From positions 960,001 through 1,024,000 of the forward strand of contig CAWIGG010000004.1 of NCBI GenBank assembly GCA_963835575.1: 64,000 nucleotides of DNA, read 5' to 3'. Both the position numbers and the translations under genes were made by a program. This document shows, one piece after another, positions 28,066 through 53,830 of this stretch. The DNA is from an uncultured Spirochaetota bacterium. Its GTDB lineage: Bacteria > Spirochaetota > Brevinematia > Brevinematales > JAOACQ01. How positions within the stretch are numbered: the first letter of the stretch is position 1; each line of letters begins with the position of its first letter. The notes below the pieces were generated by a model, which was given only the letters and a program-made list of their open reading frames with translations, ran no database searches and was not told the DNA's origin.

Positions 28066-28420
28066 TTGTTCACTTTTCTTTTGGCACGTCCCAAAAGAAA
28101 AGTGAACCGATCCCTCACCAGATGTACATATAATTTTCTACCTCGCGATGACTTTCGTGCACATCTGGTGAGGGACGAGGCCATTTTCATACGAAGCTGT
28201 CGGATCGTATGGATGTGTGTTATCCGGCATTTAGAATTTCATCCCTTGTAGTAATAGCCTCCTTATATCGCTGTCCATAGCTTTATGCGTCGGTTTTGAC
28301 ATCCGTGTCAAAAGTATGTGCCTCTCTTCTATTATTATAATAACGGATAATACAACTTGATATTGAGTTATTTGATTTTCCGATTATGGTTAAGAGGAAA
28401 ATGGCCTCGGGAACGGGGTA
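28066..28420. repeat. Structured palindromic element (MITE/REPIN-like), copy 1
   Basis: Core bounded by CGAGGCCATTTTC (28176) and GAAAATGGCCTCG (ending 28409); inner GTGTTATCCG/CGGATAATAC and TTTTGACATCCGTGTCAAAA; extra hairpins 28068-28107 and 28111-28175; inverted copy at 53521-53830. Confidence 0.85.
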
Positions 28421-28421
28421 C

Positions 28422-28482
28422 AATTAGCTTTTAGCTTCTGGCTGTCAGCTGGCTAACCGCTAACAGCCAATGGCTAACTGCT
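28422..28482. repeat. G-module heptamer repeats
   Basis: TTAGCTTTTAGCTTCTGGCTGTCAGCT..GCTAACCGCTAACAGCCAATGGCTAACTGCTA. Confidence 0.7.
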
Positions 28483-29200
28483 ATTTCTTTGCATTCGTTA
28501 CTGAAGATATATTCGTACCTTCCGACTTTACTGAATTCGTTTCCGGCCAATTATAAAGGAAATTTATTTTACTGATGCACAGGTCGTTATATTTACTGCC
28601 TTTATATACTGATTTGATTTTAAAAACTATTGTATATTTACTAATGTCTTCAACATATTTATCAAACCTATTTTCCTTATGTTCTTTATCTAAATCAGTC
28701 TTGAAATAAAATGAATTATTCAAGTTATAATCATCCTTCAATTGTATATTGTTTGATTCAATAAGAAACAAACCCAATATAACTTCGCCTATGTCTTGTC
28801 TAACATCATAAATGATTTTATACAAATATAAGTCAATATCCTTCACTCGATTATTTAAATCATATAATTGTTTATTCCTATGAAATCCATTAATTATTTT
28901 TATACCTTTAACCCATTTTTCATTAGAAAAAGGATCAGGACGGTCAAACATAATCATTATTTCTTCACCAACACCGCCATTCTTCCTTGTAGCCCAGGGT
29001 AAATCCGTTTGATCATTTATAAGGTTTTTATCATAAAAAATAATATCGTTCTCCACTAATTCTGAAGTTGAAGTAATATAAATTTTACTGCCCGATTTAA
29101 GAAATAAATCTTTAACCCGTTTTTCATTAAAATATATTTTATCTTTACCAAATGCCCATGCATTCATTAGAATAAACAGGATAATTATAATCCGCTTCAT
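28481..29200 (-). CDS. Secreted protein with NADase-type/F5-8-like glycan-binding domain
   Basis: Signal peptide; W..GVGEEI..IINGF..NNRVK..IKSVYKGSKYNDLCISKINF; very AT-rich. Confidence 0.7.
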   Translation of the reverse strand: MKRIIIILFILMNAWAFGKDKIYFNEKRVKDLFLKSGSKIYITSTSELVENDIIFYDKNLINDQTDLPWATRKNGGVGEEIMIMFDRPDPFSNEKWVKGIKIINGFHRNKQLYDLNNRVKDIDLYLYKIIYDVRQDIGEVILGLFLIESNNIQLKDDYNLNNSFYFKTDLDKEHKENRFDKYVEDISKYTIVFKIKSVYKGSKYNDLCISKINFLYNWPETNSVKSEGTNISSVTNAKK

Positions 29201-29263
29201 ATATTTAACCTCTTTCTAAATAAATTAGTAAACAATACATCCCCATAATATTACCTCAAAATT

Positions 29264-29430
29264 TTCCCATACGCAAATCAGGGACGCTGAAAGAAGCGTC
29301 CCTGTATTTATATTAAAAACTATAAACTTCGAATTCTTCCCGCATTCCTGTTTATGAGCTATTAAACTAAATAATTAATCCGCGCAAATCCGCCCCATCC
29401 GCGTTATCCGCGTGAAAAATCGGATATTAC
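29264..29430 (-). repeat. Repeat arm of locus L2 (REP hairpin plus B and F modules)
   Basis: CAGGGACGCT-GAAAGA-AGCGTCCCTG; TTCTTCCCGCATTCCTGTTT; ATCCGCGTTATCCGCGTGAAAAATCGGATATT (reverse complement of 10741-10775). Confidence 0.78.
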
Positions 29431-29499
29431 AATAAAGTATCAATTATATAAATCCTTATATCAAAACAAAAGAGCCGTTAATCCTCTTCTAGCCAGCCC

Positions 29500-30144
29500 C
29501 TATTTGCCCGCTTGTTCCGCCAGATTGATCTTTTTATAAACATATTTGATGTATTCCAGATTAATGTCCTTCGCCACTGTTATTTTGATAGTCTCTTTCG
29601 ATTTCCCGACCGGGATATCATCAGCGCTGTAATCACGCCAGTTTAAAGGATAGACCAGGTCTTTCCCGTCGCAGATCGTCAGATAATTTCCTTCTATGAT
29701 CCGCCTGAAGGAGAAATGCTCATTGAGACTGTTCTTATTCTCGATCAGCAGATCAATATTATAGGTTTTCGTGTTTTTATTGATAGAAGATATGCTTCCG
29801 GCAACGCTGACATCCATTTTTTCAAGCTGATCGACAAATTGATTGTCCCAGTTCTTCACCAGCTCGTCCTTTGTCAGGATCAGGCCTTTAGAAACGATTT
29901 TTGCCGAGACTTTCAATATGCTGTCGGAAATCGGTTCCCAGTTGGCAATAATTAAAATCACATTGAGCCCGATTAATATTATAATCCCGAAAACGAGGGA
30001 TGAAAGAGTGATGATGACTTTATTCACGTTGATTTTGTTCTTCTGTACCAGGTCAATGATCAATTTAATGACAATAGCCGCGATAATAACAAAGATGACT
30101 ACTATAAGAAGGGAAATGATGATAATTCCGATTATACTGAGCAT
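29500..30144 (-). CDS. Hypothetical membrane protein
   Basis: Two N-terminal TMs; GAGGAGG RBS before ATG 30144. Confidence 0.7.
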   Translation of the reverse strand: MLSIIGIIIISLLIVVIFVIIAAIVIKLIIDLVQKNKINVNKVIITLSSLVFGIIILIGLNVILIIANWEPISDSILKVSAKIVSKGLILTKDELVKNWDNQFVDQLEKMDVSVAGSISSINKNTKTYNIDLLIENKNSLNEHFSFRRIIEGNYLTICDGKDLVYPLNWRDYSADDIPVGKSKETIKITVAKDINLEYIKYVYKKINLAEQAGK

Positions 30145-30206
30145 AAATCCTCCTCTAAACAATGCTTTATAGATTTTATCATTAATTGAAGGAATAAATC
30201 AAATAA

Positions 30207-30409
30207 GGGCAGTTCTAAAAACTCAAATATTTAGAACTGCCGCTATTGTATGAGTTCATGCTACCGCTCGAGTTCGCTGTCTGAAAAGAAAGCCGACCAG
30301 CGAACTCTATACGGCAGCGCCATTTGCATTCACAAGGAATTTTTAACCGGGGCAGTTCCAAAACCTGTTGTGGAAATATCTGATAAATTTTTAGTTTTTG
30401 GAACTGCCC
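30207..30409. repeat. Pair of GGCAGTTC..GAACTGCC palindromes (30207-30241 and 30350-30409)
   Basis: Same IR family as 24834 and 26901. Confidence 0.75.
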
Positions 30410-30455
30410 ATAACAGATATTTTGAGAATTGATCTGCGGCAGGAAATATCCCGGA

Positions 30456-31805
30456 CTATTTTCTCATGGCGTTAACCGCATAAGCCCGGTCGAAATATTG
30501 ATCAAGCTCTTCTTTTTTTAAGGAAGTATTTTCTATAATAATCTTCTTATATTCTTCCATTGTGCCGGGATTTCGGGAATTGAGGATTTCATAAATTTCT
30601 TTGATCTTGTGATATCCCAGTACGGGTACCAGCGTGTTAAGAAGGACATGCGAGCGGAGCATGTTTTCCTCGATCCTCTCATGGTCCAGCTCCATCAGCG
30701 GGAAGAATTTTTCAAGAAGCGCGGAGATGGCCTTATTGAGACAGGAATGGATCTCGATAAATGATTCCAGGATAAAAGGCAGGTAAGCGTTCAATTGAAG
30801 CTGGCCGTTCTGAGCGTAGGAAGCGATCTTGCCGGCCTCATGCTGTACGGAAATAGATAAGCCGCGGGCCAGTTCCAGTATGACGGGATTGGTCTTGGCG
30901 GCCATGATCGTGGAGCCGTATTGAAGGACGGGATGCCTGATCTCGCCGATAAACGATGAAGTATAGAGCAGGAGGTCGCCCGTCATTTTGAAGATGTTCA
31001 AAGCGCAGAGGCTGTAGCCGTTCGCGAGCTCCGCCCATTTGTCCTGGTTGGCGATTTCATCCGTCAGGTTCTGGCTTCTTGCCAGCGGAAGGCCTGTGAT
31101 CTGGCGGAGGTATTTTTCGGTAAAATAAATATATTCCTGCGGTGCGGAAAAGCATGTGCCGAGCGCCGTGCCGCCCAGCGCGGTTGTCCTGATGCGCTCC
31201 TTGAGCTTGTGGAGCCGCCACCTGTCGCGCTCGACGCCCCCCGCCCATGAGGCAAATACCTGCCCGAGCGTTATGGGAAGCGCGTCCTGCATTTCGGTCC
31301 TTCCGGTCATCATGATACTGCCGGTCTCATTTTCTTTTTTGATCAAAGATTCCTGAAGTTTGATGACGGATTCTTCAGTTTCCAGAAGGTCCCGGTACAG
31401 CATGACCGTCACCGCGGTCGGGAATGTATCGTTTGTCGATTGATAGCGGTTGATATCGTCTATCGGGTCAATGTGAATCTTCTTTTTATCTTTTTTGTAT
31501 GACAATTCTGAAGCCCTGCCGGCAATGACTTCGTTGATGTTCATATTGATACTGGTCCCGGCGCCTCCCTGTTTGAGAGAGAGGGGAAAATGAGAATCAA
31601 GCTTTCCTTCGACGACTTCATCCGCCGCTTCCAGGACGCATCCGTAAACGGACGGCCCGAATACTTTGCCGTTTTCCTGCATGGCCATGATACAGCTCTT
31701 CTTGACCTCGCCGTACGCGCGGATCAGTTCCCGGGGGAGATTTCCCCGGCCGAAGTTTTGTATTGCTTTTTCCGTTTCACTGCCGTAATACTTTTTTTCA
31801 GGCAT
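30456..31805 (-). CDS. Aspartate ammonia-lyase / fumarase-family lyase (hyd-associated)
   Basis: QGGAGTSINMNINEVIA, QSTNDTFPT, GRTEMQDA, GSTIMAAKTNP. Confidence 0.85.
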   Translation of the reverse strand: MPEKKYYGSETEKAIQNFGRGNLPRELIRAYGEVKKSCIMAMQENGKVFGPSVYGCVLEAADEVVEGKLDSHFPLSLKQGGAGTSINMNINEVIAGRASELSYKKDKKKIHIDPIDDINRYQSTNDTFPTAVTVMLYRDLLETEESVIKLQESLIKKENETGSIMMTGRTEMQDALPITLGQVFASWAGGVERDRWRLHKLKERIRTTALGGTALGTCFSAPQEYIYFTEKYLRQITGLPLARSQNLTDEIANQDKWAELANGYSLCALNIFKMTGDLLLYTSSFIGEIRHPVLQYGSTIMAAKTNPVILELARGLSISVQHEAGKIASYAQNGQLQLNAYLPFILESFIEIHSCLNKAISALLEKFFPLMELDHERIEENMLRSHVLLNTLVPVLGYHKIKEIYEILNSRNPGTMEEYKKIIIENTSLKKEELDQYFDRAYAVNAMRK

Positions 31806-32817
31806 TGACAGCCTCCTTTAAGCGTCTTAATGAATCCCCTCTTCCTTTTATAATAGTCTTTCCTGCGGAGCGGGCGCGAACTTCAAGACAGCCGATGCAC
31901 TGCAGGCCGTCCTCTTCGATGCAGATCTTGCCCGGATAGAGAGTGTAATAACGGCGGTAGGGCAGAGGCGTGATATTGGGCATGATGATATTGGCGCCGG
32001 CCCGGAGCATTTTTTCCCGGCCTTCCGGGTCAAGACTGCCCGCCGCCGTCGTGGCTGGAATATGCGCGCGCGGCAGAAGCAGGCGGACGAGCGATACGGC
32101 GCGGAGCGTATGTTCAAACGATAGCTGGGGCGAACCCCCAAGCGGCGTATCGGGATGGGGGATAAAAGGGCCGATCCCGACCATATCCAGTTCGAGCTTC
32201 CGGCAGAGCAGGGCATTCTGTACGCGGATCTCTTCGGTTTCACCCGGCAGGCCGGTCATATAGCCGGAGCCCGTTTCATAATCCAATTCCTTCAAGTCGG
32301 CAAGGGCCTGAAGCCTCTCTTCAAGGGTCCGGCCGTTCCGGAGATGCCTGTGCAGGTCCGGGCCGGCTGTTTCAAAGCGCAGAAGATAGCGGTCGGCGCC
32401 GGCTTTTTTAAAAGCCCGGTATTCTTCCTTTTTCCGGATGCCGCATGAAAGCGTCAGGGCGGCTTCCCCGTTTGTCTTTGTTTTTATTTTTTCGATCAGG
32501 GCGGTTAATATTTTACCAGTGTAAAAATCGTCCTCGCCGCTCTGGAGGACAAATGTCCTCAGGCCCGCCTTAAAACCTTCCCTGATAATTTCCAGTATTT
32601 GCTTTTCATCCAGCCTGTATCGGCTGATTTTTAAATTGCCCGCCCTGATCCCGCAGTACAGGCAGTCTCTCCGGCAATAGTTTGAGAACTCGACGAGGCC
32701 GCGGAGCCACACGGTATTGCCATGATTTTCACGGCAGACCCGGTCGGCCTGTTTTGACAGTTCTTCGGGAGAAGCGGTTTTGTAGAAGTCGATGATGGTT
32801 TTTATATCTTTTTCCAT
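31798..32817 (-). CDS. hydE: [FeFe]-hydrogenase maturase HydE
   Basis: RGLVEFSNYCRRDCLYCGIR, GPFIPHPDTP, GANIIMPN, YTLYPGK. Confidence 0.93.
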   Translation of the reverse strand: MEKDIKTIIDFYKTASPEELSKQADRVCRENHGNTVWLRGLVEFSNYCRRDCLYCGIRAGNLKISRYRLDEKQILEIIREGFKAGLRTFVLQSGEDDFYTGKILTALIEKIKTKTNGEAALTLSCGIRKKEEYRAFKKAGADRYLLRFETAGPDLHRHLRNGRTLEERLQALADLKELDYETGSGYMTGLPGETEEIRVQNALLCRKLELDMVGIGPFIPHPDTPLGGSPQLSFEHTLRAVSLVRLLLPRAHIPATTAAGSLDPEGREKMLRAGANIIMPNITPLPYRRYYTLYPGKICIEEDGLQCIGCLEVRARSAGKTIIKGRGDSLRRLKEAVNA

Positions 32818-32821
32818 TTTA

Positions 32822-33082
32822 TTTCACCGCCAAGACACCAAGAACACAAAAAGGCACAAACGGGGATTAATAATTCTTTATTGTATCAATTAAAGCCATC
32901 TATTAGCATTTCTTTTTTTTGGAATCAAATTGAGTAATCCGCTAAGTCACGCGAATGAACGCTAATATAATGTAACTATTAGAAACCTTCATTTTCATTC
33001 TTGATTCTTTGCGTGTATTCGCGTGCATTCGCGGATTACCCTAGTTGGCGGTCCTTGGTGTTCTTTGTGTCTTGGTAGTTAA
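32822..33082. repeat. Empty composite inverted-repeat locus L3
   Basis: A (32822-32860) and C (32935-32966) followed by mirror C' (33008-33039) and A' (33044-33082); no ORF between. Confidence 0.8.
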
Positions 33083-33099
33083 TCTGAACATTTCTCATT

Positions 33100-33879
33100 T
33101 TATTTTCCCTTTCTATATATGACCGTTGCCGAGGCCTGATGGGTCGGCATCAGCGTGATCTCGGAAATCTGGACGTGCTCCGGTGCGGATACGGCATAGA
33201 GAACAGCGTCCGCTATATCCTCCGCGTCGAGCGGTTTGACGCCTTCGTAAAATTTATGGGCGCGCTCTATGTTGCCATGAAAGCGGACGATGCTGAATTC
33301 CGTTTCGGCCAGGCCGGGCTGGATATTCGTCACGCGGATGGGCCGGTCGACAAGCTCCATCAGGAGGGCGTCGGATATAAAACGCACGGCGGCTTTCGAT
33401 GCGCAGTAAACGGCGCCGTGCGCGTAAGCCTGCTTCCCGGCGATGGAGCCGATATTTACGATATGGGCCTTTGCCCCGGCCGGAAGGGATTTTAAAAAAA
33501 GCTGTGTTATGTAGAGAAGTCCTTTTATGTTTGTGTCGATCATCGCGTCCCAGTCGTCCGGGTCGCCGTCCTGTACTTTTTCAAGTCCGAGCGCGAGGCC
33601 GGCGTTATTAATAAGAATGTCAATCTGTTTCCATTCACCGGGAAGATTTTTAAACCAGTCTTCGCAGGCGGAACGGTCCCGGACATCCAGCTTTCCAGAG
33701 TACAATTTCACACCGTACTTTTTTTGAAGACCTTTTGAGACTTCCTCAAGCCTGTCCATCCGCCTCGCGCAGAGGACCAGCCGCGCTCCTGCCCCTGCGA
33801 ATTTTTCCGCGCAGGCTTTGCCGAAGCCGCTCGAAGCGCCGGTGATAAAAACGGTCTTGTTTTTTAAGATTGTCCGCAT
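33100..33879 (-). CDS. SDR oxidoreductase (YdfG-like)
   Basis: TGASSGFG, NNAGLALG, YCASK, QPGLAETEFS. Confidence 0.9.
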   Translation of the reverse strand: MRTILKNKTVFITGASSGFGKACAEKFAGAGARLVLCARRMDRLEEVSKGLQKKYGVKLYSGKLDVRDRSACEDWFKNLPGEWKQIDILINNAGLALGLEKVQDGDPDDWDAMIDTNIKGLLYITQLFLKSLPAGAKAHIVNIGSIAGKQAYAHGAVYCASKAAVRFISDALLMELVDRPIRVTNIQPGLAETEFSIVRFHGNIERAHKFYEGVKPLDAEDIADAVLYAVSAPEHVQISEITLMPTHQASATVIYRKGK

Positions 33880-33887
33880 ATGATCCC

Positions 33888-35294
33888 TCAAAAATAAATG
33901 TCCCGTTCGCCATTACCGATTTTTTCAAGGACCTCCGCCATTCTCTTTTTTAAGGCGGGTTTATCCGCGCCGTTTATAAGTGAATCGATCAGCTTGAGCC
34001 CTTTTTCCCTGACATCAGGGGAAGCGTAATCGCTGAGATATTCCTTGAATGTAAATACAGCGTTCGGAAAACAGAATTCCTTGATCAGCCCGGGTTTCGC
34101 CAGGTCCATAAAGTCATGACCTACCCTTCCCTTCCGGTAGCAGCCCGTGCAGAAGGAAGGAATATATTTATCGTCGATCAAAGCGGAAATGACTTCCTCC
34201 AGCGACCGGTGGTCGCCCAGCGAGAACTGCCCGCCCTTATCGTTATTAATATGGGCCGCGTAAGCGCCGGGATTTGTCCGGGAACCTGCCGAGATCTGGC
34301 TGATGCCGTAATGGAAGAGCTCCGTGCGGAGCTTTTCGCTTTCGCGCGTCGAGAGAATGATCCCGGTGTAAGGCAGCGCGATGCGGATGACGGCGACGAT
34401 CTTTTTAAAGTCCTCGTCGCTCACAGGATAGGGAATATGGCGCGAGAGCGGCGCGCCGTCCGCCGGTTCGATCCTGGGGACGCTCACGGTATGGGGGCCG
34501 CAGCCGAACGCTTTTTCCAGATGAGCGGCATGCTCCATCAGCGCCAGCACCTCAAAGCGGTAATCCGCCAGGCCGAAAAGTGCGCCGATGCCGACATCGT
34601 CGATGCCGCCCGCCATTGCGCGGTCCATGACGGTCAGGCGCCATTCATAATCCGCCTTTCTGCCGGAGGGATGGTATTTTTTATAAAGCTCTTCGTCGTA
34701 TGTTTCCTGGAAGCAGACGTATGTGCCGATTTTTTCCGCCTTGAGCTTTTTAAAACCTTCTATATCCTGAGGGGCGATCTCGACATTGACCCTCCGGATG
34801 TAAGCCTCCCCGGCCCGCGCGGCGTACGCCGTCCGGATCGCCGAAAGAAAATAATCCGGCGGCAGTTCCTCAGTCTCGCCGCAGAGCATAAGAAGCCTTT
34901 TATGCCCCTGCTCGAGGAGCGTGATCACTTCTTTTTCAACCTGCGGCAGTGTGAGATTTGTCCTGTGTATTGATTTGTTGTCTTTGCGGAACGCGCAGTA
35001 AAGGCAGTTGTTCGAACAGATATTGCCGATGTAAAGAGGCGCGAACAGAACCAGGCGGTTGCCGTAAATCTCCTGTTTGACCTTGTTGGCGGTGATGAAT
35101 ATTTTTTTCAGCTGGTCTTTATCTTTTATCTGGAGAAGGGCGGAAACGTCTTTTTGGTTCAAGCCCTTGAGTATGAGCGCTTTTTCCAGGATGGCGTTTA
35201 CTTCGCTTTCAGTAGGTTCAAGTCTATCTATCAGTCCGTAGAGCCTATCCCTGTCAATGAAATTCTTCGGGCCCGAAGCCTTCGTTTGGGTCAT
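33888..35294 (-). CDS. hydG: [FeFe]-hydrogenase maturase HydG
   Basis: FAPLYIGNICSNNCLYCAF, GPHTVSVPRIEPA, PSFCTGCYR. Confidence 0.95.
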   Translation of the reverse strand: MTQTKASGPKNFIDRDRLYGLIDRLEPTESEVNAILEKALILKGLNQKDVSALLQIKDKDQLKKIFITANKVKQEIYGNRLVLFAPLYIGNICSNNCLYCAFRKDNKSIHRTNLTLPQVEKEVITLLEQGHKRLLMLCGETEELPPDYFLSAIRTAYAARAGEAYIRRVNVEIAPQDIEGFKKLKAEKIGTYVCFQETYDEELYKKYHPSGRKADYEWRLTVMDRAMAGGIDDVGIGALFGLADYRFEVLALMEHAAHLEKAFGCGPHTVSVPRIEPADGAPLSRHIPYPVSDEDFKKIVAVIRIALPYTGIILSTRESEKLRTELFHYGISQISAGSRTNPGAYAAHINNDKGGQFSLGDHRSLEEVISALIDDKYIPSFCTGCYRKGRVGHDFMDLAKPGLIKEFCFPNAVFTFKEYLSDYASPDVREKGLKLIDSLINGADKPALKKRMAEVLEKIGNGERDIYF

Positions 35295-35550
35295 TATCTT
35301 CCTCCCTGTATCTGGTCAAAACCGATTTGACCTGGATGCCCTCCAGCTTTCCGATCTTTCCTGTCAGGGCGCCGATCTGGTCCGTATCGCCTTCCACAAT
35401 GAGGGAGATGATGTGAATGCCTTTATCGCGGAGAGGCAGGCCCATCCTGCCGATAATGATCTCTCCATGCTCGGACAAAAGCGAGTTGAGTTTCGGGACG
35501 TTTTTTGTTTCTTTGAGAAGAATTGCGACAACGCCGATTCTCTTTTCCAT
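35254..35550 (-). CDS. TM1266-family iron-only hydrogenase system regulator (ACT-like)
   Basis: MEKRIGVVAILL..LNSLLSE..IIIGRMGLP..IGALTGKIGKLEGIQVKS; GGAGGAG RBS. Confidence 0.9.
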   Translation of the reverse strand: MEKRIGVVAILLKETKNVPKLNSLLSEHGEIIIGRMGLPLRDKGIHIISLIVEGDTDQIGALTGKIGKLEGIQVKSVLTRYREEDNDPNEGFGPEEFH

Positions 35551-35628
35551 CAGATGTCTCCTCCGGATCAGTCTGGGATTCAAACGGCTCCTTGATACAA
35601 TGAGTGATCGTATCTTAGAGGCTGATAG

Positions 35629-35657
35629 ATTTTACGCCTGTTTTTTACAAATGTCAA
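35629..35657 (-). promoter_or_regulatory. Putative sigma70 promoter of the hyd maturation operon
   Basis: Minus strand TTGACA-17 bp-TAAAAT. Confidence 0.6.
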
Positions 35658-36162: not shown

Positions 36163-36163
36163 A

Positions 36164-43931: not shown

Positions 43932-46900
43932 ATGGTAGTGAGTCAAGAAAGGATTACATTCGCGAAGAATAAAGACAGAGCGCCTCTTCCCGATCTGCTT
44001 GATATTCAATTAAGGTCCTTCAAAGATTTTCTCCAGATTGATAAAAAACCCACCCAGAGGGAAAGCAAAGGCCTGGAGCATGTTTTCAGGAGCTTTTTTC
44101 CCATCGAAGGCGCTAACGGCGAGATCATTATTGAATATGTCAGTTATGAAGTGGGCGCGTGCAAATATACGGAAGACGAGTGCTTCGATAAAAATCTGAC
44201 TTACAGCGTTCCCGTCAAGGCGATATTCCGTTTGATCGACAGGAAAACAGGCGAAATAAAGGAAAAAGATATATACATAGGCGATTTTCCCCTGATGACG
44301 AAGAGGGGGACATTTATTTTTAACGGCGCCGAACGGGTTGTCGTGAACCAGATCTATAAATCGCCCGGCGTTCTTTTCAGCTATAAAAACAAGGAATTTT
44401 CCTCAAAAATCGTGCCTGAGAAAGGTTCCTGGCTCGAATTTATTATAGACACGAAAAAGGACCTGATGTATGTCCGTATCGACTCGAGAAGAAAAGTCCT
44501 GGTTACCATGTTCCTCAGGGCCCTAGAGCTGAGCACGGCCGATATCATCAACGCATTTTTCAAAATCAGGAAGATTGACCTTTCCAGGATCGAGAAGGAT
44601 GAGGCCATCACGCGTCTGGTCGGCAAGTATGTGGCCGAGGACGTTCTGGACGAAGAGAATAATATTATGATAGGAGCTGTCGAAAAACTCTTCCCGAACA
44701 GCATCAACCAGCTCTATCAGAAAGGGAAGACGATCATTAAAATTATCGATCCCAAATCGGTCATAGAAAACAGGCCGCTCATCAATACCCTCGAAAAGGA
44801 TGACACCAAGGACGCTGTTAATAAGGCCATCAAAAAGATTTACAGCATTCTTCATCCCGGCGAAGCGGCGCCTCTTGAAAGCATCGTGAAGGAACTCCAT
44901 AATATGTTCTTCAGCCCCAAGATGTACGACCTGGGCGAAGTCGGCCGGTACAAACTGGTACTCAAGCTCTATCCCGAAATAACGCAGGACGAGAAGAACG
45001 CCCTGATCGAGCAGAGGACGCTGTCCTTTGAGGATATCAACAGGACGCTGTCGCATCTTGTCAAGGTTTATAATAAACAAACAAACCTGGACGATGTCGA
45101 TCATCTGGGCAATAGAAGGGTCCGGAACGTGAATGAGCTTCTTGTGAACCAATTGATCTCCGCTTTTACGAAAGTGGAAAAATCGATCCATGAAAAGCTT
45201 TCTTCAAGGGAAATAGAAGACCTGACGCCCCAGAGCATCATCGCGATCAAGCCCATTGTCTCGGCTTTGAATGATTTCTTCGGGATGAGCCAGCTTTCCC
45301 AGTTTATGGACCAGACGAACCCGATTTCCGAATTGACGCATAAAAGAAGGCTCTCTGCCCTCGGCCCCGGCGGCCTCTCAAGGGACAGGGCCGGATTTGA
45401 AGTCCGCGACGTTCATAATACGCATTACGGCAGGGTCTGCCCCATTGAAACGCCGGAAGGCCCGAACATCGGCCTGATTGTTTCTCTGGCGACATATGCT
45501 AATGTTAACAACTATGGATTTCTCGAAACCCCCTATGTGGTCATTAAGAACAGAAAAGTAACGGATGAGATCCGCTATCTATCGGCCACTGAAGAAGAAA
45601 ATTATTATATAGCCCAGGCCAACGCGAAGCTCAACGCCAAAGGCGAAATCGTGGAAGATTTTGTCCAGTCACGATATAAAGTGGAATTCGAGCTGGCCCC
45701 GAGCGATAAGATCCAGCTGATGGACGTTGCGCCGAAACAGATCCTTTCCGTATCGGCTTCCATTATTCCCTTTATCGAGCACGACGACGCCAACCGCGCC
45801 CTGATGGGCTCGAACATGCAGAGACAGGCTGTTCCTCTTCTTGCATCCGACGCGCCCATCGTGGGAACAGGTATGGAATATTATGTGGCGAGGGATTCAC
45901 GCGCTGTTGTTCTCTCCGAAGTGGACGGCAAAGTCTTAAAAGTGGATTCGCAGGCCATCACGGTCCATGAAAACCGTAAGGGCGACGTGACATATAATCT
46001 TGTCAAGTTCAGAAGGACCAATCAGGATACAAGCTTCAATCAGAAGCCGATCGTCGATGAGGGCGATATTGTCAAAAAAGGGACTGTCCTCGCGGACGGT
46101 TTCGCGAGCGCGGGCGGAGAACTGGCGCTGGGTAAAAATATCCTCGTCGCGTTCATGCCCTGGAACGGCTATAATTATGAAGATGCGGTGCTCATCAGCG
46201 AAAAACTTCTTAAAGATGATGATTTTACTTCCATATACACGACGGTTTTTGAATGTAAAGCCCTGGAAACCAAGCTGGGCAGCGAAGAGATAACCAATGA
46301 GATCCCCAATGTAGGCGAGGACGCCGTCAGGAACCTGGATGAAAACGGGATCATCCGCGTCGGGGCATATGTCAAACCCGGCGATATACTGGTCGGCAAA
46401 GTAACTCCGAAAGGCGAGCCGACGGAAACCCCTGAGTTCAGGCTTCTCCATGCCATCTTCGGCGAAAAGGCCAAGGACGTCAGGGACACATCGCTGCGCG
46501 TGCCGCATGGCGAAGGTGGCGTTGTCGTGGATGTCAAAGTGTTCAGCGCAGACAAGGGCGACGAGCTGGCGCCCGGAGTGCTCAAGCTTGTCAAAGTCTA
46601 TATGGCAAAGAAAAGAAAAATAAAACCCGGCGATAAAATCGCGGGACGCCATGGAAATAAAGGTGTCATTTCCCGCGTTCTGGCGGAAGAGGATATGCCT
46701 TATCTGCCTGACGGGACGCCGGTTGATATCGTATTGAACCCTCTCGGCGTGCCGAGTAGAATGAATATCGGCCAGCTTTTTGACAGCCTTCTGGGACTGG
46801 CGGGCTGGAAACTGGGCGTGCAGTATGAATGCCCCGTTTTCGAAGGCGCGACACTGGAAGAAATTGAAAAGCAGCTCGAACTGGCCAATGATAAAACGAA

Positions 46901-47462
46901 AAAGGAAATCATAAAGGAAAGGAAGAATTACGGCGAATCGGACAGGGAAATACACCGCTATTATGAAAGGATCAAGCTTCAGAAAGACGGCAAATTCCTG
47001 GTCAGGGACGGCAAAACGGGCGACTTATTTGAAAAGCCCGTGTTTGTCGGCGTGATGTACATTATGAAGCTGCACCATATGGTGGATGATAAGATACACG
47101 CGCGCTCCGTCGGCCCGTACTCGCTTGTGACCCAGCAGCCGCTGAGAGGAAAGGCGAACTTCGGAGGGCAGAGGCTCGGCGAAATGGAAGTCTGGGCGCT
47201 GGAAGCTTACGGCGCGGCGAACCTTTTACAAGAGATGCTGACAATAAAATCGGATGATACGGACGGAAGGGTGAGGATTTACGAAGGCGTCATCAAGGGC
47301 AAGTACACGGCTTCGCCCGGTATTCCGGAATCGTTCAATGTGCTGGTCCAGGAACTCCGCGGTCTGGCGCTGGACATCCAGGTTTATGACAAGAACGGAA
47401 AAAGGGTCCCTCTGAACGATAAGGAAAAAGAATTGATCGATATGAAGGTGCATTTAATATAA
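43932..47462 (+). CDS. rpoB: RNA polymerase beta subunit
   Basis: ETPEGPNIGL, GSNMQRQ, GDKIAGRHGNKG, GQRLGEMEVWALE. Confidence 0.99.
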   Translation: MVVSQERITFAKNKDRAPLPDLLDIQLRSFKDFLQIDKKPTQRESKGLEHVFRSFFPIEGANGEIIIEYVSYEVGACKYTEDECFDKNLTYSVPVKAIFRLIDRKTGEIKEKDIYIGDFPLMTKRGTFIFNGAERVVVNQIYKSPGVLFSYKNKEFSSKIVPEKGSWLEFIIDTKKDLMYVRIDSRRKVLVTMFLRALELSTADIINAFFKIRKIDLSRIEKDEAITRLVGKYVAEDVLDEENNIMIGAVEKLFPNSINQLYQKGKTIIKIIDPKSVIENRPLINTLEKDDTKDAVNKAIKKIYSILHPGEAAPLESIVKELHNMFFSPKMYDLGEVGRYKLVLKLYPEITQDEKNALIEQRTLSFEDINRTLSHLVKVYNKQTNLDDVDHLGNRRVRNVNELLVNQLISAFTKVEKSIHEKLSSREIEDLTPQSIIAIKPIVSALNDFFGMSQLSQFMDQTNPISELTHKRRLSALGPGGLSRDRAGFEVRDVHNTHYGRVCPIETPEGPNIGLIVSLATYANVNNYGFLETPYVVIKNRKVTDEIRYLSATEEENYYIAQANAKLNAKGEIVEDFVQSRYKVEFELAPSDKIQLMDVAPKQILSVSASIIPFIEHDDANRALMGSNMQRQAVPLLASDAPIVGTGMEYYVARDSRAVVLSEVDGKVLKVDSQAITVHENRKGDVTYNLVKFRRTNQDTSFNQKPIVDEGDIVKKGTVLADGFASAGGELALGKNILVAFMPWNGYNYEDAVLISEKLLKDDDFTSIYTTVFECKALETKLGSEEITNEIPNVGEDAVRNLDENGIIRVGAYVKPGDILVGKVTPKGEPTETPEFRLLHAIFGEKAKDVRDTSLRVPHGEGGVVVDVKVFSADKGDELAPGVLKLVKVYMAKKRKIKPGDKIAGRHGNKGVISRVLAEEDMPYLPDGTPVDIVLNPLGVPSRMNIGQLFDSLLGLAGWKLGVQYECPVFEGATLEEIEKQLELANDKTKKEIIKERKNYGESDREIHRYYERIKLQKDGKFLVRDGKTGDLFEKPVFVGVMYIMKLHHMVDDKIHARSVGPYSLVTQQPLRGKANFGGQRLGEMEVWALEAYGAANLLQEMLTIKSDDTDGRVRIYEGVIKGKYTASPGIPESFNVLVQELRGLALDIQVYDKNGKRVPLNDKEKELIDMKVHLI

Positions 47463-47466
47463 TACA

Positions 47467-47500
47467 CCGGTAGAGACGTTGCATGCAACGTCTCTACCGG
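47467..47500. repeat. GTAG-type REP, perfect 34-bp palindrome
   Basis: CCGGTAGAGACGTTGCATGCAACGTCTCTACCGG. Confidence 0.85.
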
Positions 47501-47528
47501 GACAACATTAAAATAAAAGGAGATAAAC

Positions 47529-50500
47529 ATGAAGGGATCGACCAGTTTTGGAGCGATATCCATTCAGCTTGCTTCTTCTGAACTTATCAAGAGTCTATCC
47601 TACGGCGAGGTCAAGAAGCCGGAAACAATAAATTACAGAACGCTCAGGCCCGAGCGGGAAGGCCTTTTCTGTGAAAAGATCTTCGGACCGACAAAGGACT
47701 ATGAATGTTCGTGCGGGAAATTCCGCTCCATCCGCTACAAGGGCATTGTCTGCGACAAGTGCGGCGTGGAAGTGACGGAAGCGAAGGTCAGGCGCTACAG
47801 GACAGGCCATATCGAGCTGGCTGCGCCGGTGGCCCATATCTGGTACTACAGGATTGTGCCGAGCAAGATCGCCCTTCTCCTTGAAGTCGCTCCCGCGGAT
47901 ATCCAGAGCATCCTTTATTTTGAAAAGTATATTGTCATCGATCCGGGCGAGACGGACCTGGAACAGAACCAGGTGCTGACGGACGAGGAATTTGAGGAAT
48001 ACAAGGAGAAATATAAAGAGGCTTTTACGGCCGACACGGGGGCCGTGGCCATTAAAAAGATCTTAAAGAACCTCGATCTGGACGTCCTGATCGATATGCT
48101 TCGCAATCATGTGGACAGCAAACTGAAAGTGGACAAAAAGGTATTAAAGAGGCTGGAGCTTGCCGAGGAGATCCGGAAGTCCAATAATAAGCCCGAATGG
48201 GTGGTACTGGACATTATTCCCGTCATTCCGCCGGATTTAAGGCCGATGGTTCCGCTGGACGGGGGACGGTTCGCCACTTCCGACATTAATGATTTATATA
48301 GAAGGCTCATCAACAGGAATAACCGTTTGAGGAAACTCAAATCGGTTAACGCGCCCGATATCATCATCAAGAATGAAATGAGAATGGTCCAGGACGCCGT
48401 TGATTCGCTTTTTGATAATTCAAGGCGCTCACACCCCGTGACGGGGAACGGCGACAGGCCGCTCAAATCACTGTCCGACATATTGAAAGGAAAACAGGGG
48501 CGTTTCAGACAGAACCTTCTCGGAAAGAGAGTGGACTACTCCGGACGTTCCGTTATTATAGTAGGCCCGAACCTCAAGCTGCACCAGTGCGGCCTGCCGA
48601 AACTGATGGCGCTTGAGCTTTTCAAGCCCTTTGTCATGCGCGGGCTGGTCGAGCAGGGTTACGCTCATAATATCAAAGCCGCCAAGCGGATGATCGAAAC
48701 GGAGCATGAACTGGTATGGGGAATTCTGGAGAATGTCGTCAAAGGGCATCCGGTGCTGTTAAACCGCGCTCCGACGCTCCACAGGCTCGGCATCCAGGCC
48801 TTTGAGCCGATCCTGATCGAAGAAAAAGCCATTCAGCTTCATCCCCTTGTCTGTCATGCCTACAACGCGGACTTCGACGGCGACCAGATGGCGGTCCATG
48901 TCCCTCTGACGCCTGAAGCCCAGATCGAGGCGTGGCTTTTGATGCTTTCATCGAGGAACCTGCTGAACCCGGCAAACGGAAAACCGATCGTCTATCCGAC
49001 GCAGGACATGGTGCTCGGGATTTACTACCTGACAAAACCGGAAGGCGATGTCCCGAAACGGTACAAGCATTTTGACAATATAGAGGAAATATTTCTGGCC
49101 ATTGAAACAAGAAACGCGCAGTATAACCAGAGGATAAAATTTAAAAAGAACGGCAAATGGATAGAAACGACATACGGCAGGGTGATCTTTAATGAAGTTA
49201 TTCCCGCACAGATGGAATTTATCAACGACACGCTGACAAGCAAGAAAATAGAAAATCTGATCGCCGCCTGCTACAAACTTTATGGGATCAAGGAAACAGC
49301 GCAATTGGTGGACGATCTGAAAACACTCGGGTTCAAATATTCGACAATTTACGGCGTGACCATTTCCGTATCGGATGTGGAAATTCCGGAAGAGAAGTAT
49401 GAGATCGTTGAGAAGACCGAGAAAGAAGTGGAAAAGACGGAAGACAACGCCCGGAAGGGTTTGATCACGCATGATGAAAAATACAACCAGGTGATCGACC
49501 TCTGGGCCAGCGCCAACGAAAAAGTAAAAAAGCTGGTCGAGGCGAAATTGAAGGAAAGCGACAAAGGCTTCAATTCGCTTTACGCGATGATGGACTCCGG
49601 CGCGAGAGGCTCGAGGGAACAGATCCGCCAGCTGGCGGGAATGAGAGGCTTGATGGCAAAACCGTCGGGCGAAATCATCGAGCTTGCCATTAAATCGAAT
49701 TTTAAAGAAGGGCTTTCCGTGCTTGAGTACTTTATCTCGAGCCACGGCGCGAGAAAGGGTCTGGCCGATACGGCTCTCAAGACGGCGGACGCCGGCTACC
49801 TGACAAGAAAGCTGGTTGATATCTCGCAGGATGTCGTGGTCACGGAAACAGACTGCGGCACTGTCAAGGGTATTGATATTTCCTCGATAAAGGAAGGCGA
49901 CGAAGTGATCAAGCCTTTAAAGGAAAGGATCCTCGGACAGACTGTCGTGTCGAATATTTACGACCCGCGCAACGGTAATCTGCTTGTTCAGGCCAATGAT
50001 CTGCTTGATGAGGAAAAGACCAAACTGATAGAAGATTCGGGGATTGAAACAATAAAGATCCGCAGCGTGCTGACATGCGAAGCGGCACATGGCGTATGCG
50101 GAAAATGCTACGGCTGGGACCTCTCCGCGCGTTCGCTTGTGAATATCGGCGAAGCCGTGGGAATCATAGCGGCGGAATCGATCGGCCAGCCCGGCACACA
50201 GCTGACGATGAGAACATTCCATATCGGCGGTACGGCGGCGACGCAGCTTGAGGAAAGCGAATTGAAGCTGACTTACGATTCCTATATTGTCGACCTGCCC
50301 GAAAACCTTATTTCCAAGGAAATGGACGGGCTTGAAAAAGTGATCGTTCCCAGGAAGTCTTATGTCAGGGTCAGGAAGATCGTCCAGGTATTCAACAGGG
50401 CGGACATTGACAATAAGAAGGAACTGCCGTCGCTCAACGGCAAGGAATTCCTCAGCGAAAAAACCGTTTTTGTTTTAAAAGACGGGACCGAGGTGAAATT

Positions 50501-51611
50501 CGGAAAGAAAATCTTTGTCGTCATCAAGGACAAGGATGTTTATATACTGGAAAGCTCTATAAATGAATATCCCGTAAAGATCGGCTCGTTCATCTATGTC
50601 AAGCAGGGGCAGGTGGTGAAAAAAGGCGAGAAGATCGCCGACTTTGACCCGTATAACGAAGTATTCATCAGCGAGCATGACGGTATTGTCGGGTTCGCCA
50701 TGGAAAAATCCGGCGAAGAGGAAGAAAAGAATAAAAATATTCTGGTCATCTATAGCGATAAAAAGAAAGAATTGGAAAGGTTCGTTCTAGTCCACGGTAC
50801 AGCGCTGGCCGTTCCCGAAGGGGACAAGGTCCGCCGCGGCGATATCGTGGCGAGAAGGCCTGTGGCCAAGAGAAGAACAAGAGACATCATCGGCGGTCTG
50901 CCGCGCGTGACGGAACTGTTTGAATCGAGGAAGCCGAAAAACATCGCGGTCATCTCTAAGATCAACGGTATCGTGGAAGATATCGAGCAGAAGAAGGGAA
51001 AATACATCATTCTGATAAAGGGCAGCAACGGCATAAGCTTCTCGCATGTCGTGCCGACGGGCAAGAACATCTTCGTGAGGATCGGCGACAAAGTCCAGGC
51101 GGGAGAATCGATCTGCGACGGCGTCGTCAGCTCGCATGACATCCTGAAGGTCCTCGGCTATACGAAAGTGAACGAATTCCTTCTGAACGAGATCCAGTCC
51201 GTTTACCGCCTGCAGGGCGTGGACATCAACGAAAAGCACATCAGCGTGATCATCCGCCAGATGCTCAAAAAGGTTGAGGTAGTCAACCCCGGCGATACGG
51301 AATTCATCACCGGTCAAAATATCGACAAGAGCAAGTTCTACAAGGAAAACGAAAAGATCTCCAGCCAGGGCGGCCAGGCCGCGAAGGCGCGTCCGATCCT
51401 GATGGGCCTCACCAAGGCCTCGCTCTTTACCGAAAGCTTCCTTTCGGCCGCGTCGTTCCAGGAAACGCCCCGGGTGCTCTCGAGCGCCGCTTTGAAGAGC
51501 GCGAGGGACAAGCTCGAAGGCCTGAAGGAAAACCTCGTGATCGGCCAGCTCATCCCGGCCGGCACGGGCATCAAGAACTACCAGGGAGTCAAGATCAAGA
51601 TACCGGATTGA
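47529..51611 (+). CDS. rpoC: RNA polymerase beta' subunit
   Basis: NADFDGD, zinc ribbon, [16 protein letters not shown]. Confidence 0.99.
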
Positions 51612-51616
51612 TTGGG

Positions 51617-51795
51617 TTTCACCACGAAGACACGAAGAACACGAAGAAACACCAACAGGGTAGCACGCGAATTCATGCGAATAGACGCGAATAAGAAAGA
51701 ATGGAGAGGTTTAACAGGAAGGCGGGAAGAATTCTTATGTTATATATAAATTTACAGGGACGCTGAATGAAGCGTCCCTGATCTGCGTACGGGGG
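51617..51795 (+). repeat. Left composite arm of locus L5 (A, C and B modules plus REP hairpin)
   Basis: CACCACGAAGACACGAAGAACACGAAGAAACACCAAC; CACGCGAATTCATGCGAATAGACGCGAAT; TTAACAGGAAGGCGGGAAG; CAGGGACGCT-GAATGA-AGCGTCCCTG. Confidence 0.82.
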
Positions 51796-51816
51796 AATAT
51801 AAATTTTGCGGATCAA

Positions 51817-52152
51817 TTATTGATTTTTATAAAAGATGAAAAATGTGTAGAAGCTGTTCCCTCTTGGAATATCGGCGCAGTAGGCTGTTTTCAATTCATA
51901 GCCTTTAGAGGCCATATCCAGTAATAATTTTGTAACGGAGACATATTTTATAGTCTCTCTTTTCGCAATACCGTAATCAATTTCCGCTTCTCCGGACATT
52001 TGATAGACACCCATAGAGCCAAGCCCGGCAAAGTCATGATTAAATTTAACTATGCATATTTTGCTTTCACCGTCTGCAGAGAGCATAATTAAAGGGAATA
52101 ACGTTAATATGCATGCCAGGACCACAACTCTTAAAATAGATTTTTGACTCAT
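51817..52152 (-). CDS. Small secreted hypothetical protein
   Basis: Signal-peptide-like N-terminus, GGAGGA RBS, MASKGYELKTAY. Confidence 0.65.
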   Translation of the reverse strand: MSQKSILRVVVLACILTLFPLIMLSADGESKICIVKFNHDFAGLGSMGVYQMSGEAEIDYGIAKRETIKYVSVTKLLLDMASKGYELKTAYCADIPRGNSFYTFFIFYKNQ

Positions 52153-52518
52153 TTTATTCCTCCTAAAGTATTTTCCTGTTTTAGAATAAATTTTACTCTA
52201 ACAAGCTGGATATCATTTTCGCAGCAGTCAAATTTGTTATCGGAAAGACATAAAATCCATCGGGTATTCCTAACCGTTAACTTTAATCAGCTTCCCGGGA
52301 TTTTTGAATTGTTGTAACTTAATGTATATAATACTCCGAAGATCCGGATATTTTGCAAATTAAAAAAATATTTTTATAATTCATAAATGATTTCTGTAAT
52401 TAAAATTTGACCATGCGTCTTCCCCTGCAGGCTGCCTCCTGCGGTGTTACCTTTATGGGTACGCTTCGGCAAGCTGCGCATCAGTGCGGGTCACGCCGCA
52501 GGCAAAAAGAAAGGACTG

Positions 52519-52690
52519 GGTGTTCGATTATTATCTGAAAAAAGAGGAACGGCAGTTATCGGTTGGCTATTAGCGGTTAGCAGGAAACGGATGGAAGCTG
52601 ATGGCTAGAAGCTGACAGCTAAAAGCTATATGTGGTGTTCGACTATTATCTGAAAAAAGGAGACTAGCCGTTAGCTGTCGGCAATTAATT
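52519..52690 (+). repeat. Direct repeat pair (115-bp spacing) with G-module heptamers
   Basis: GGTGTTCGAYTATTATCTGAAAAAAG at 52519 and 52634, each followed by G-type repeats. Confidence 0.75.
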
Positions 52691-52706
52691 TTCAGCAGCT
52701 TTTTAT

Positions 52707-52735
52707 TTGACAATATAACCAAATGGTTATATTGT
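52707..52735 (+). promoter_or_regulatory. TA promoter with overlapping palindromic operator
   Basis: TTGACA-17 bp-TATTGT; perfect IR ACAATATAACCA-AA-TGGTTATATTGT. Confidence 0.75.
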
Positions 52736-52751
52736 TTATAAAGGATAAGAT

Positions 52752-53105
52752 ATGAAAGTCAAATTTTATATTAATTCCGCCGGGAAATTTCCTGTGCTGG
52801 ATTCTATTAATGTGTTGGGCAAAGAGGATCAAGTAAAGATCATTGGTTGTCTTGAAAATATTCAGCAATTAGGCTTTAACTGTCCCCGCGTAGAATTCAG
52901 GCAGATTGAAGGCAAACTCTGGGAAATTAAAATCAGGATCCAAAGCGGCGGTTATAGAATTTTTTATTTATCTATTAATAAAGATATAATTGTGTTATTG
53001 CATATGTTTAAGAAGCAGGGGCAAAAAACACCGGCAAAAGATATAAAAACAGCCATGAATCGTTTAAAGGAGGTGATTGATAATGAAGCCGATTACATTA
53101 GATGA
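52752..53105 (+). CDS. RelE/HigB-type toxin (Gp49-like)
   Basis: RQIEGKLWEIKI..YRIFY..IVLLHMFKKQGQKTP. Confidence 0.88.
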   Translation: MKVKFYINSAGKFPVLDSINVLGKEDQVKIIGCLENIQQLGFNCPRVEFRQIEGKLWEIKIRIQSGGYRIFYLSINKDIIVLLHMFKKQGQKTPAKDIKTAMNRLKEVIDNEADYIR

Positions 53106-53382
53106 AGTCATCCGGGAGAATTTAAAAAATGAAGAATTTGCCATTTTATATGAAAAAGAAAAAATAATAAACAAAATAGCCTGCGCGGTTGTGGACATGA
53201 GGCAGAGACAGGGATTAACTCAGGAAGAATTGGCTGAAAAGGCCAATACATCGCAGCCGGTTATCGCAAGGCTGGAAAGGGGAGCCGATTCAAGAATCCC
53301 GTCATTAGAACTATTAGGCCGTATTGCGCATGCTCTTGGTAAAGAAATAGTCATAGATTTTAAAACTACTTCACAGCATTAG
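53083..53382 (+). CDS. HigA-type Xre-HTH antitoxin
   Basis: RQRQGLTQEELAEKANTSQPVIARLERG..PSLELLGRIAHALG; toxin-first order. Confidence 0.88.
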   Translation: MKPITLDEVIRENLKNEEFAILYEKEKIINKIACAVVDMRQRQGLTQEELAEKANTSQPVIARLERGADSRIPSLELLGRIAHALGKEIVIDFKTTSQH

Positions 53383-53450
53383 TAATTATTCATTAGTCAT
53401 TAAGCTTTACTTGTCCTATGGAAATATTAATTTTGACTGAAGAAATAGAG

Positions 53451-53830
53451 GTTAGCTGATAGCTGTTGGCTATTAGCGGTTAGCAGGAAACGGTTGGAAG
53501 CTGACAGCTAATAGCTAATTGTTCCCTCCGTTCCCGAGGCCATTTTCCTCCTGGCTTAAATCTGCAAATAAAACATCTCAATTTCAAGGCGTGTTATCCG
53601 CTATTATAATAGAAGACTGAAGTACATGTTTTTGACACGGATGTCAAAACCGACGCATAAAGTCATTGGACGGCGAGATAAGGAGGCTATTTCAATGAGG
53701 GATCGTTTTATAAAACCGGATAACACACATCCATACAAACAGACAGCTTAGTATGAAAATGGCCTCGACCTGTTTTCTTTCTTTAGCGCGATATTTCTTT
53801 CTTTTCGAAAAGAAAGAAATATCGTGATCC
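53451..53830. repeat. G-module repeats plus structured palindromic element, copy 2 (inverted relative to 28066-28482; tail resumes at 55540-55563)
   Basis: Core CGAGGCCATTTTC (53535) to GAAAATGGCCTCG (ending 53767) with TTTTGACACGGATGTCAAAACCGACGCATAAAG. Confidence 0.85.

Follow-up and report, generated by a model that had tools for sequence, protein, structure and literature searches.

The L2 and L5 loci

We analyzed a 64,000-nucleotide stretch of DNA (referred to here as the window) from an uncultured Spirochaetota bacterium of the order Brevinematales (contig CAWIGG010000004.1, positions 960,001 to 1,024,000), whose 4.39-Mb genome, here called G000, comprises 7 contigs with labels of the type C4. 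Two loci of the window, L2 and L5, each consist of a left flank, cargo genes, and a right flank in which heptamer repeats run into a structured element that is dispersed across the genome. This element has a covarying fold, is polar with respect to the DNA beside it, brackets genes in divergent pairs, and stands at sites that are empty in congeners; our tentative view is that it could well form the dedicated mobile ends of non-autonomous cargo elements. The features of both loci and their adjoining genes are given below from the left flank to the right flank, in window positions (ORF, open reading frame; aa, amino acids).

L2
29500-30162, minus: 220-aa membrane-type ORF 5' of L2, without family match, within a segment that genome G004 lacks between its GGDEF and aspA-like genes
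29370-29429, minus: short-word repeat module directed at the cargo (117 genome-wide profile matches; inner end approximate)
29264-29352, minus: left flank, i.e., the final word of the array, an AT-rich linker, a hairpin with a 10-bp stem (29279-29304), and 3' bases (2 genome copies)
28481-29200, minus: cargo, 239-aa NADase-type glycan-binding-domain protein, GC content of 0.28
28416-28480, minus: heptamer array, from the cargo stop codon into the element
28176-28417, minus: element body (TwoAYGGAY-like) with outer stem, inner stem, and GGA-loop hairpins (28294-28313 and 28270-28281)
28068-28175, minus: 3' hairpins, i.e., an extra separate-type hairpin (about 28110-28175) and a pyrimidine/purine-armed tail hairpin (28068-28107)
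26949-28061, plus: 370-aa ORF on the 3' side of the element; as a query it had no match in 11 further genomes of the same family

L5
47529-51611, plus: rpoC, followed by L5 in G000 and directly by rpsL in 4/4 congeners
51620-51712, plus: short-word arrays, immediately past the rpoC stop codon
51713-51793, plus: left flank, with hairpin (51755-51780)
51817-52152, minus: cargo, 111-aa ORF with hydrophobic N terminus, without family match; this query was unmatched in 34 other genomes of the order
52511-52687, plus: cargo, heptamers and two 3'-end remnants of an SH3-domain gene (73 to 76% identity to the far end of an Rhs island, C4:1065581, C6:1955, and C6:3652-3898)
52752-53382, plus: cargo, RelE/HigB-like toxin (52752-53105) and HTH antitoxin (53077-53382) (65%/71% identity to the island-center pair, C4:1054564-1055191)
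53451-53526, plus: heptamer array and junction into the element
53527-53767, plus: element body, with GGA-loop hairpins (53630-53649 and 53662-53674)
53768-53866, plus: 3' hairpins (tail)
53867-55537, plus: insertion sequence (IS) of the IS1182 family interrupting the 3' hairpins (24 near-identical full copies in G000); the right half of a tail hairpin follows at 55543-55560

When aligned pairwise in the same orientation, the two loci share both flanks, which bears out what an earlier note on this DNA had described. The left flanks agree in 70 of 89 columns (E value of 3.5e-12 in a comparison against the whole genome), and the right flanks, spanning the heptamers, the junction, and the structured element, agree in 253 of 322. 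The cargo differs, as the same note had stated: the L2 gene matches the NADase_transloc family (PF25302/NF047619), while L5 carries the 111-aa ORF and a RelE/HTH_3 pair of the Gp49/RelE-like plus HTH_3 type.

The left flank opens with ∼20 bases that represent one word from an abundant family of short-word repeats (many 17- to 19-base blastn matches); this word recurs at other island edges, and the unique part of the flank is the hairpin with ∼50 bases around it. No third full-length copy was present in G000, either by blastn or with a two-sequence profile run without filters. Among 35 genomes of the order, including G000, the exact hairpin pattern was found in G000 only; the best blastn matches in five relatives were 21 bases of the repeat word, and 13 loci matching the pattern in metagenomes were all generic terminator- or REP-like hairpins without the flanking bases or the element. 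Independent genome-wide occurrence of the flanks, which would speak against their pairing, thus holds for the right flank, dispersed in 34 copies, but not for the left one, with 2 copies. This left flank is missing at 32 of the 34 elements and therefore does not serve as a cassette end in general; the fixed scaffold of the earlier note is largely refuted as the unit of a system across the genome, and neither search gave a further pair of left and right flank in G000. At L2 and L5 themselves, however, the pairing is not a matter of chance: both left flanks are co-oriented with an element and lie at most 2 kb 5' of it, in positions that make up 0.8% of the genome, and, of all 34 elements, just the two that have the left flank also show arrayed heptamers at the 5' junction, a coincidence of 1/561 under independence (post hoc test).

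Fold, relatives, and genomic context of the element

In G000, 41 pieces from a profile search correspond to 34 copies of the element, delimited by their 5' ends. It comprises a body of ∼245 bp of covarying structure plus 3' hairpins, which extend it by ∼90 to 120 bases beyond the 3' end first given for it. The mean pairwise identity among the 24 uninterrupted copies aligned is 79.7%, and the bodies of L2 and L5 (81.6% identical) are not mutual nearest neighbors, each being 7th of 23 for the other. The replichore bias of the copies (23/34) is not significant (p = 0.058). A covariance model gave 43 matches in G000, 29 in G006, 22 in G009, and 1 marginal match in G005, with 61 candidates scored per genome, and none in the other genomes of the order (31, among them 4 congeners of G000). 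No match was obtained in 150 genomes of the phylum with stricter filters and 14 candidates scored per genome, the genomes listed there not including G006 and G009. G009 additionally has a second subfamily with the same tail (23 blastn pieces). The exact element pattern occurred at 2 loci in a collection of genome contigs and at none in viral or metagenome contigs.

The fold has an outer and an inner stem, two hairpins with GGA loops, and, 3' of these, a tail hairpin and a further hairpin; the loop of the tail hairpin pairs with bases 5' of that hairpin to form a 3' pseudoknot. In a 63-copy alignment fitted to the model, 89.5% of the cells are paired and 26 of the 30 pairs have two-sided changes, in 379 cells versus 110 in shuffles and 25 to 52 in slid controls; an unfitted 14-row alignment agrees. 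The pseudoknot covaries as well, with 3 to 5 bp in 17 of the 19 tails (out of 60) that could be parsed by script. The GGA loops are kept across the three genomes G000, G006, and G009, the loops of L2 being the exact consensus and others varying in the first two letters. The strand carrying GGA is not clearly the better folder: A-C versus G-T mismatches number 38 versus 12 in the inner stem and 15 versus 21 in the outer stem, and the reverse strand has the lower energy in 37 of 60 copies. Strand evidence does not settle whether RNA or DNA is folded.

Like the TwoAYGGAY motif (RF01731; Weinberg et al. 2010, PMC2864571), the element has a basal stem that bears two neighboring hairpins with AYGGAY-type loops, and both hairpins covary here. 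In Pseudomonas, an extended form of this motif was described with an elongated basal stem, three additional hairpins, a 3' pseudoknot, and 5' short repeats (Li et al. 2026, bioRxiv 10.64898/2026.09.22.753630). Judged against the text description in that preprint, the elongated stem, the extra 3' hairpins, and the pseudoknot are all present in our element, which likewise occurs in tens of copies per genome, with a patchy distribution and an excess of divergent doublets; the 5' short-repeat array of L2 and L5 contains 5-mers from the preprint's list of six. This array, however, is found at 2 of our 34 copies only, and the same heptamers occur elsewhere without the element. The Rfam model matches L2 end to end with 19.3 bits (E value of 2.7 in a 501-base search), below its gathering threshold of 43 bits. 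The model had no match in 15 loci and none genome-wide in G000 at an E value of ≤10, while 5 full-model matches in G006 and G009 (24 to 37 bits) all fall on element copies, on the same strand. At gathering level, Rfam yields two tRNAs only in the window. Judged from sequence and predicted structure, the element is thus a spirochaete branch or relative of extended TwoAYGGAY that formally lies below the family threshold. Its occurrence in Spirochaetota differs from that of the extension in the preprint, which is largely pseudomonadotal (among genomes with an Rfam match). Silby (2009) listed a family of 320 bp, R200, that has 47 copies in SBW25; it presumably corresponds to the 48 TwoAYGGAY matches.

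The DNA on the two sides of the element differs. The 1.5 kb on its 5' side is more AT rich than that on its 3' side for 27 of the 34 copies in G000 (p = 3.6e-6) and for 32 of 46 scorable copies in G006 and G009 (p = 0.0026). With IS genes skipped, our own ORF calling, and classes assigned by hand, the nearest gene in G000 is of restriction-modification (RM), Cas, toxin-antitoxin (TA), or PADLOC type on the 5' side of 14/34 copies versus 1/34 on the 3' side (p = 2e-4), and the 5' count of defense/TA-type genes rises to 20/34 when the second gene is included. An AT-rich kinase with generic PADLOC matches was excluded from the defense count, and on the 3' side the second ORF was scanned for two copies whose first seemed spurious. 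In the relatives G006 and G009, defense/TA-type genes make up 12 of 45 distinct 5' genes versus 0 of 38 3' genes (p = 3e-4), with the sides scanned unequally (PADLOC at 1e-10 on a chosen subset of 5' genes and at 1e-25 on 66 3' genes). The only recurrent families among 271 proteins encoded within 4 kb of the 5' ends are RM/RAYT-like, IS, and TA families. Genes at the 5' end point toward the element in 18 cases and away from it in 16, which is unlike a fixed 5' untranslated region or a terminator.

Neighboring copies less than 12 kb apart, among 105 copies of the three genomes, form 19 divergent, 10 tandem, and no convergent pairs; without three partners found only in fetched loci, the ratio of divergent to convergent pairs is 16:0 (p = 3e-5). 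In G000, the two divergent pairs (C2:809393/819629 and C5:22899/33273) enclose a Cas3-Cas1 CRISPR-Cas locus and a type I RM system; in G006, such pairs surround type I RM, SIR2/Dsr1-like genes, and unannotated AT-rich genes. The doublets span 0.1 to 10.4 kb and enclose genes, unlike the divergent doublets of Pseudomonas, with a median distance of 249 bp and a grouping limit of 2 kb (Li et al. 2026). The same preprint describes an expansion in Pseudomonas that resembles that of a mobile element. The smallest gene-bearing divergent pair (1.1 kb; G009 C5:288165-289770, locus L090) carries a broken HNH-repeat/HNH endonuclease-type gene.

At several gene junctions, congeners lack both cargo and element. 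The pairs ftsK-dinG and lon-radical SAM each abut in 3/3 congeners, and rsmA abuts its neighbor in 2/3, while cargo and element stand there in G000. In addition, solo tails in direct orientation lie 0.8 to 2.2 kb 5' of five elements, beyond small cargo, one of them perhaps being the tail of a truncated tandem copy. The most recent-looking event that we saw, at another of these solo tails, is a 105-bp, 98% identical direct repeat (C2:98540-98645 versus C2:94057-94161, locus L031), starting at the last tail hairpin and enclosing a Fic gene, a small ORF, and an element.

The motif family, its doublets, and a suspicion of its mobility are already published. New as far as the literature searched goes are the spirochaete branch missed by Rfam, the polarity quantified in three genomes, the kilobase-scale bracketing, and the empty sites; in the same literature, we found no description of cargo bracketing by a TwoAYGGAY motif, and the words “cargo” and “restriction” each have no occurrence in the main text of Li et al. 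(2026).

The putative rpoC-rpsL island and elements inserted in the repeat

The gene rpsL of G000 lies at C6:7248 and does not adjoin rpoC. If C4 and C6 join, as we infer, the DNA between both genes amounts to at least 62 kb (window 51612-64000, C4:1024000-1066873, and C6:1-7247), and L5 is the left edge of this island. The island encodes a 3,175-aa subtilase/Ig protein, a 3,602-aa Rhs-M23 protein, and SH3 proteins, and it contains an inverted duplication of a CHC2 primase and two tyrosine recombinases surrounding a TA pair. The SH3-end remnants and heptamers of L5 resemble its far end. The same heptamers as at L2 and L5 frame a four-helix-bundle gene of the island and follow immunity-type genes of the island without an element nearby as well; intergenic heptamer repeats are described in PMC4679880, where the term “four helix” is absent from the text consulted. 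A third heptamer array of the window (23618-23700) follows a 1,026-aa gene without a structured element.

Homologs of the L2 protein carry Brevinematales names, and in all three other genomes that have one (G004, G007, and G014) the gene stands directly behind a long co-oriented ORF, an arrangement that suggests the position of an immunity gene and hence a predicted immunity function; the preceding ORFs have no Pfam match in the stretches scanned. The genes flanking L2 (GGDEF and aspA-like) are 190 bases apart in G004, and hairpin repeats of another abundant family mark both outer edges of the G000-specific segment containing L2 (30200-30420 and 26800-26870).

Given the pairing of left flank and element and the heptamer coincidence, L2 and L5 probably descend from one ancestral block whose cargo later changed, which is the simplest history and agrees with shared flanks around different cargo, although not with a general scaffold of left and right ends. 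This block would have consisted of a word array, the hairpin, an immunity-type gene, heptamers, and the element, and may have arisen from sequences of the Rhs polymorphic-toxin island whose left edge is L5. An inverted duplication over a distance of 22 kb would have followed, at an early date to judge from the ∼80% identity, and the cargo between the flanks would have changed afterwards. Both loci resemble the orphan modules for toxins and immunity proteins that are known from polymorphic toxin (Rhs) loci (PMC3482391) in that the L2 gene and the SH3 remnant of L5 are similar to genes behind Rhs-type ORFs, and the island beside L5 encodes Rhs and SH3 proteins, CHC2 primase, and paired tyrosine recombinases. 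They differ in that the immunity function is predicted here and the ORFs before the NADase homologs, as scanned, match no Pfam family.

Several mobile elements also have the element as their common target. In the 8 split copies that we examined, the interruption is a group II intron, one of two types of IS, or, in one case, another repeat plus a second copy. The intron, with an identical reverse transcriptase, sits antisense in the first GGA-hairpin loop of three copies (C2:94363-96392, C4:452771-454800, and C5:90392). Four copies contain, in their second hairpin, an IS that encodes a DUF772 transposase. IS1182 lies within the 3' hairpins of four G000 copies, including L5, and IS1182-family elements are found repeatedly in the tail hairpin across the three genomes (window 53867-55537; G006 L089, L091, L094, L111, and L123; G009 L099 and L102). 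A second long palindromic family, with ∼340 bp between 21-bp inverted ends (C2:1013489-1013811, C2:1415128-1415448, C4:515973-516292, C4:908301, and C5:320096), is within 2 kb of an element at 3 of its 5 loci, at one of them inside the element. Finally, the left end of the window carries a defense-type block (376-3094) of DUF2326/CTD10 (ABC-three-component) and HNH genes.

Possible movement of the element and alternative explanations

If the element does form mobile ends, the mobile unit would consist of two copies with their 5' ends facing the cargo, or of a single copy combined with either a tail remnant or a different repeat module. Such a unit might be folded as a single strand and processed, together with its cargo, by an enzyme encoded elsewhere, and single copies would be pairs that lost a partner or the outcome of one-ended events. 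The earlier note also thought more broadly of a non-autonomous element that exchanges its cargo and lacks an enzyme; this idea suits the structured element itself much better than the two-flank scaffold.

The best candidate for the enzyme, a weak one, would be an HUH/Y1 (RAYT-like) nuclease. Of the five RAYT-like matches in G000, three lie within 10 kb on the 5' side of an element, and one such gene ends 49 bases 5' of a copy. Across 12 genomes, co-occurrence of RAYT and element is imperfect, and the link is weak. RAYT-like Y1 domains are also seen fused into or inside RM loci on the 5' side (C5:410034-410444 in L056, C4:784586-785108, and L088:8121-8648). A connection of RAYT groups with restriction genes was looked for in PMC5581495 and not found. 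A gene of IscB type (RRXRR) was found in 0 of 5 genomes, the control set likewise giving no matches.

Several observations weigh against dedicated mobile ends. G008 has 5 Y1 matches and no element, and G009 (57% complete) has elements and no Y1 match. No target-site duplication was seen by eye at three junctions, where the congeners are too diverged to fix the ends. Among all genome matches to the terminal stem motif, no transposase shares the ends of the element, the ORFs in split copies being unrelated IS and intron proteins, and none of the 8 split copies examined is an autonomous version with its own ORF. The two members of a pair resemble each other no more than copies taken at random do (80.1% and 80.6%), recent identical copies were not found, and 24 of the 34 copies in G000 have no neighbor within 12 kb; an alignment-free tail search, which recovered only part of the known tails, added no partners. 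L2 and L5 have lineage-specific DNA on their 3' side, too. At 2 of 7 synteny tests (lpxD and mreB, the two divergent pairs of G000), the neighboring genes are rearranged, so that these sites are uninformative. Finally, polarity is not specific to the element, as the short-word module (∼80 bp, 117 matches) points into AT-richer DNA in 88/117 cases, suggesting that edges of imported DNA may attract several repeats. This module is found co-oriented within 6 kb 5' of 11/34 elements versus an expected background of 7.4%, and at ftsK-dinG inverted word arrays enclose cargo and element together, so that several nested repeat families edge the imported DNA of this genome.

An alternative is that the repeat spreads alone and acts as an anchor without a dedicated enzyme, its shared homology letting RecA-type recombination integrate or replace neighboring foreign DNA on one or both sides. 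Copies that are ∼80% identical without close pairs are what repeated import out of a pool would give, direct repeats of tail, cargo, and element are compatible with Campbell-type integration, and hairpin repeats of Neisseria modulate the integration of transforming DNA (PMC11893778). Such anchoring leaves the 5'-side position of cargo in donors and the strict covariation unexplained, however, and the empty sites in congeners lack the element. Moreover, 80% identity over 245 bases makes a poor substrate for homologous recombination, and altogether we regard this route as unlikely. We give a similarly low probability to a functional RNA or insulator kept beside foreign DNA, e.g., a CsrA-binding RNA or a barrier to spurious transcription, in which case selection rather than co-mobility would produce the polarity. 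CsrA binding has been suggested for TwoAYGGAY (Gardner and Eldai, PMC4333381), the GGA loops are conserved in three genomes, csrA is present in G000 and G006, and the 3' pseudoknot suggests a folded single strand. Yet csrA is present in G002 and G004 as well, both without the element; adjoining genes are randomly oriented, the GGA strand is not clearly the better folder, copies tolerate IS and intron insertions, and their arrival would still need a route.

Both of these seem more plausible than a dedicated cassette system with this left flank and this right flank as its fixed ends, as the earlier note had proposed. The left flank, the heptamer junction, and the element are indeed coupled at two loci, but the left flank is found at 2/34 elements and in none of the other genomes searched, it is partly an abundant repeat word, and the heptamers follow immunity-type genes of the island independently of the element, which makes such a system improbable. 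Least probable is that independent repeat modules came together by chance at two permissive intergenic sites. This would be in keeping with the 1,167 of 2,067 intergenic regions that bear some repeat, with upstream modules that several other element pairs have in common, and with the bodies of L2 and L5 not being nearest neighbors; against it stand a left flank with just two copies, each having an element in the same orientation no more than 2 kb away, and the heptamer coincidence of 1/561.

Dedicated mobile ends can also be compared with known systems. Composite transposons and pairs of miniature inverted-repeat transposable elements have two inverted ends, exchangeable cargo, and an enzyme in trans, all of which recur in our proposal. 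Here, however, the ends are long covarying folds of ∼80% identity rather than near-identical IS copies, and neither a cognate DDE transposase nor a target duplication was found. In integrons, a folded attC site stands beside variable cassette cargo. The element resembles it in lying by variable cargo that is often of defense or TA type, in tandem site-cargo-site arrangements, and in being targeted by IS1182 and a group II intron, but it is dispersed rather than arrayed, has 245 to 350 bases, adjoins genes without uniform orientation (18:16), and forms more divergent than tandem pairs. REPIN/RAYT and NTS/SsnA are hairpin-nuclease systems whose repeats are dispersed, noncoding, and palindromic, as is our element; a protein with its gene at another site presumably processes these repeats in the form of single-stranded DNA (PMC3116915, PMC3337134, and PMC11893778). 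They differ from our unit, which has ∼350 bases and a multihelix fold, and no nuclease gene consistently flanked by it was found.

Extending the proposal of mobile ends beyond this genome is more speculative still. It is possible that structures of the TwoAYGGAY type, rather than being regulatory RNAs in the first place, form the recognition ends of an undescribed, cross-phylum class of non-autonomous mobile elements, which would carry antiphage and accessory blocks (0.1 to >10 kb) between chromosomal gene junctions via a dedicated single-strand-processing enzyme acting in trans, with L2 and L5 as two states of one block after cargo exchange. Taken alone, the L2/L5 pair is an old duplication with altered cargo and of modest significance. 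The wider finding bears on the open question of how chromosomal defense systems without an integrase or transposase arrive at new gene junctions, and TwoAYGGAY has been without an assigned function since 2010; a repeat that faces restriction, CRISPR-Cas, Dsr-like, DRT-like, and TA genes from outside in three genomes joins both puzzles. In practice, the 5' side of the element also directs attention to AT-rich genes without annotation, which may represent new defense systems. Candidates for such undescribed defense genes are the AT-rich genes on this side (GC content of 0.20 to 0.31) without a Pfam or PADLOC match, at L054:2990-5943, L087:4461-6702, L091:4762-7529, L124:1980-4533, and L117:4689-5573.

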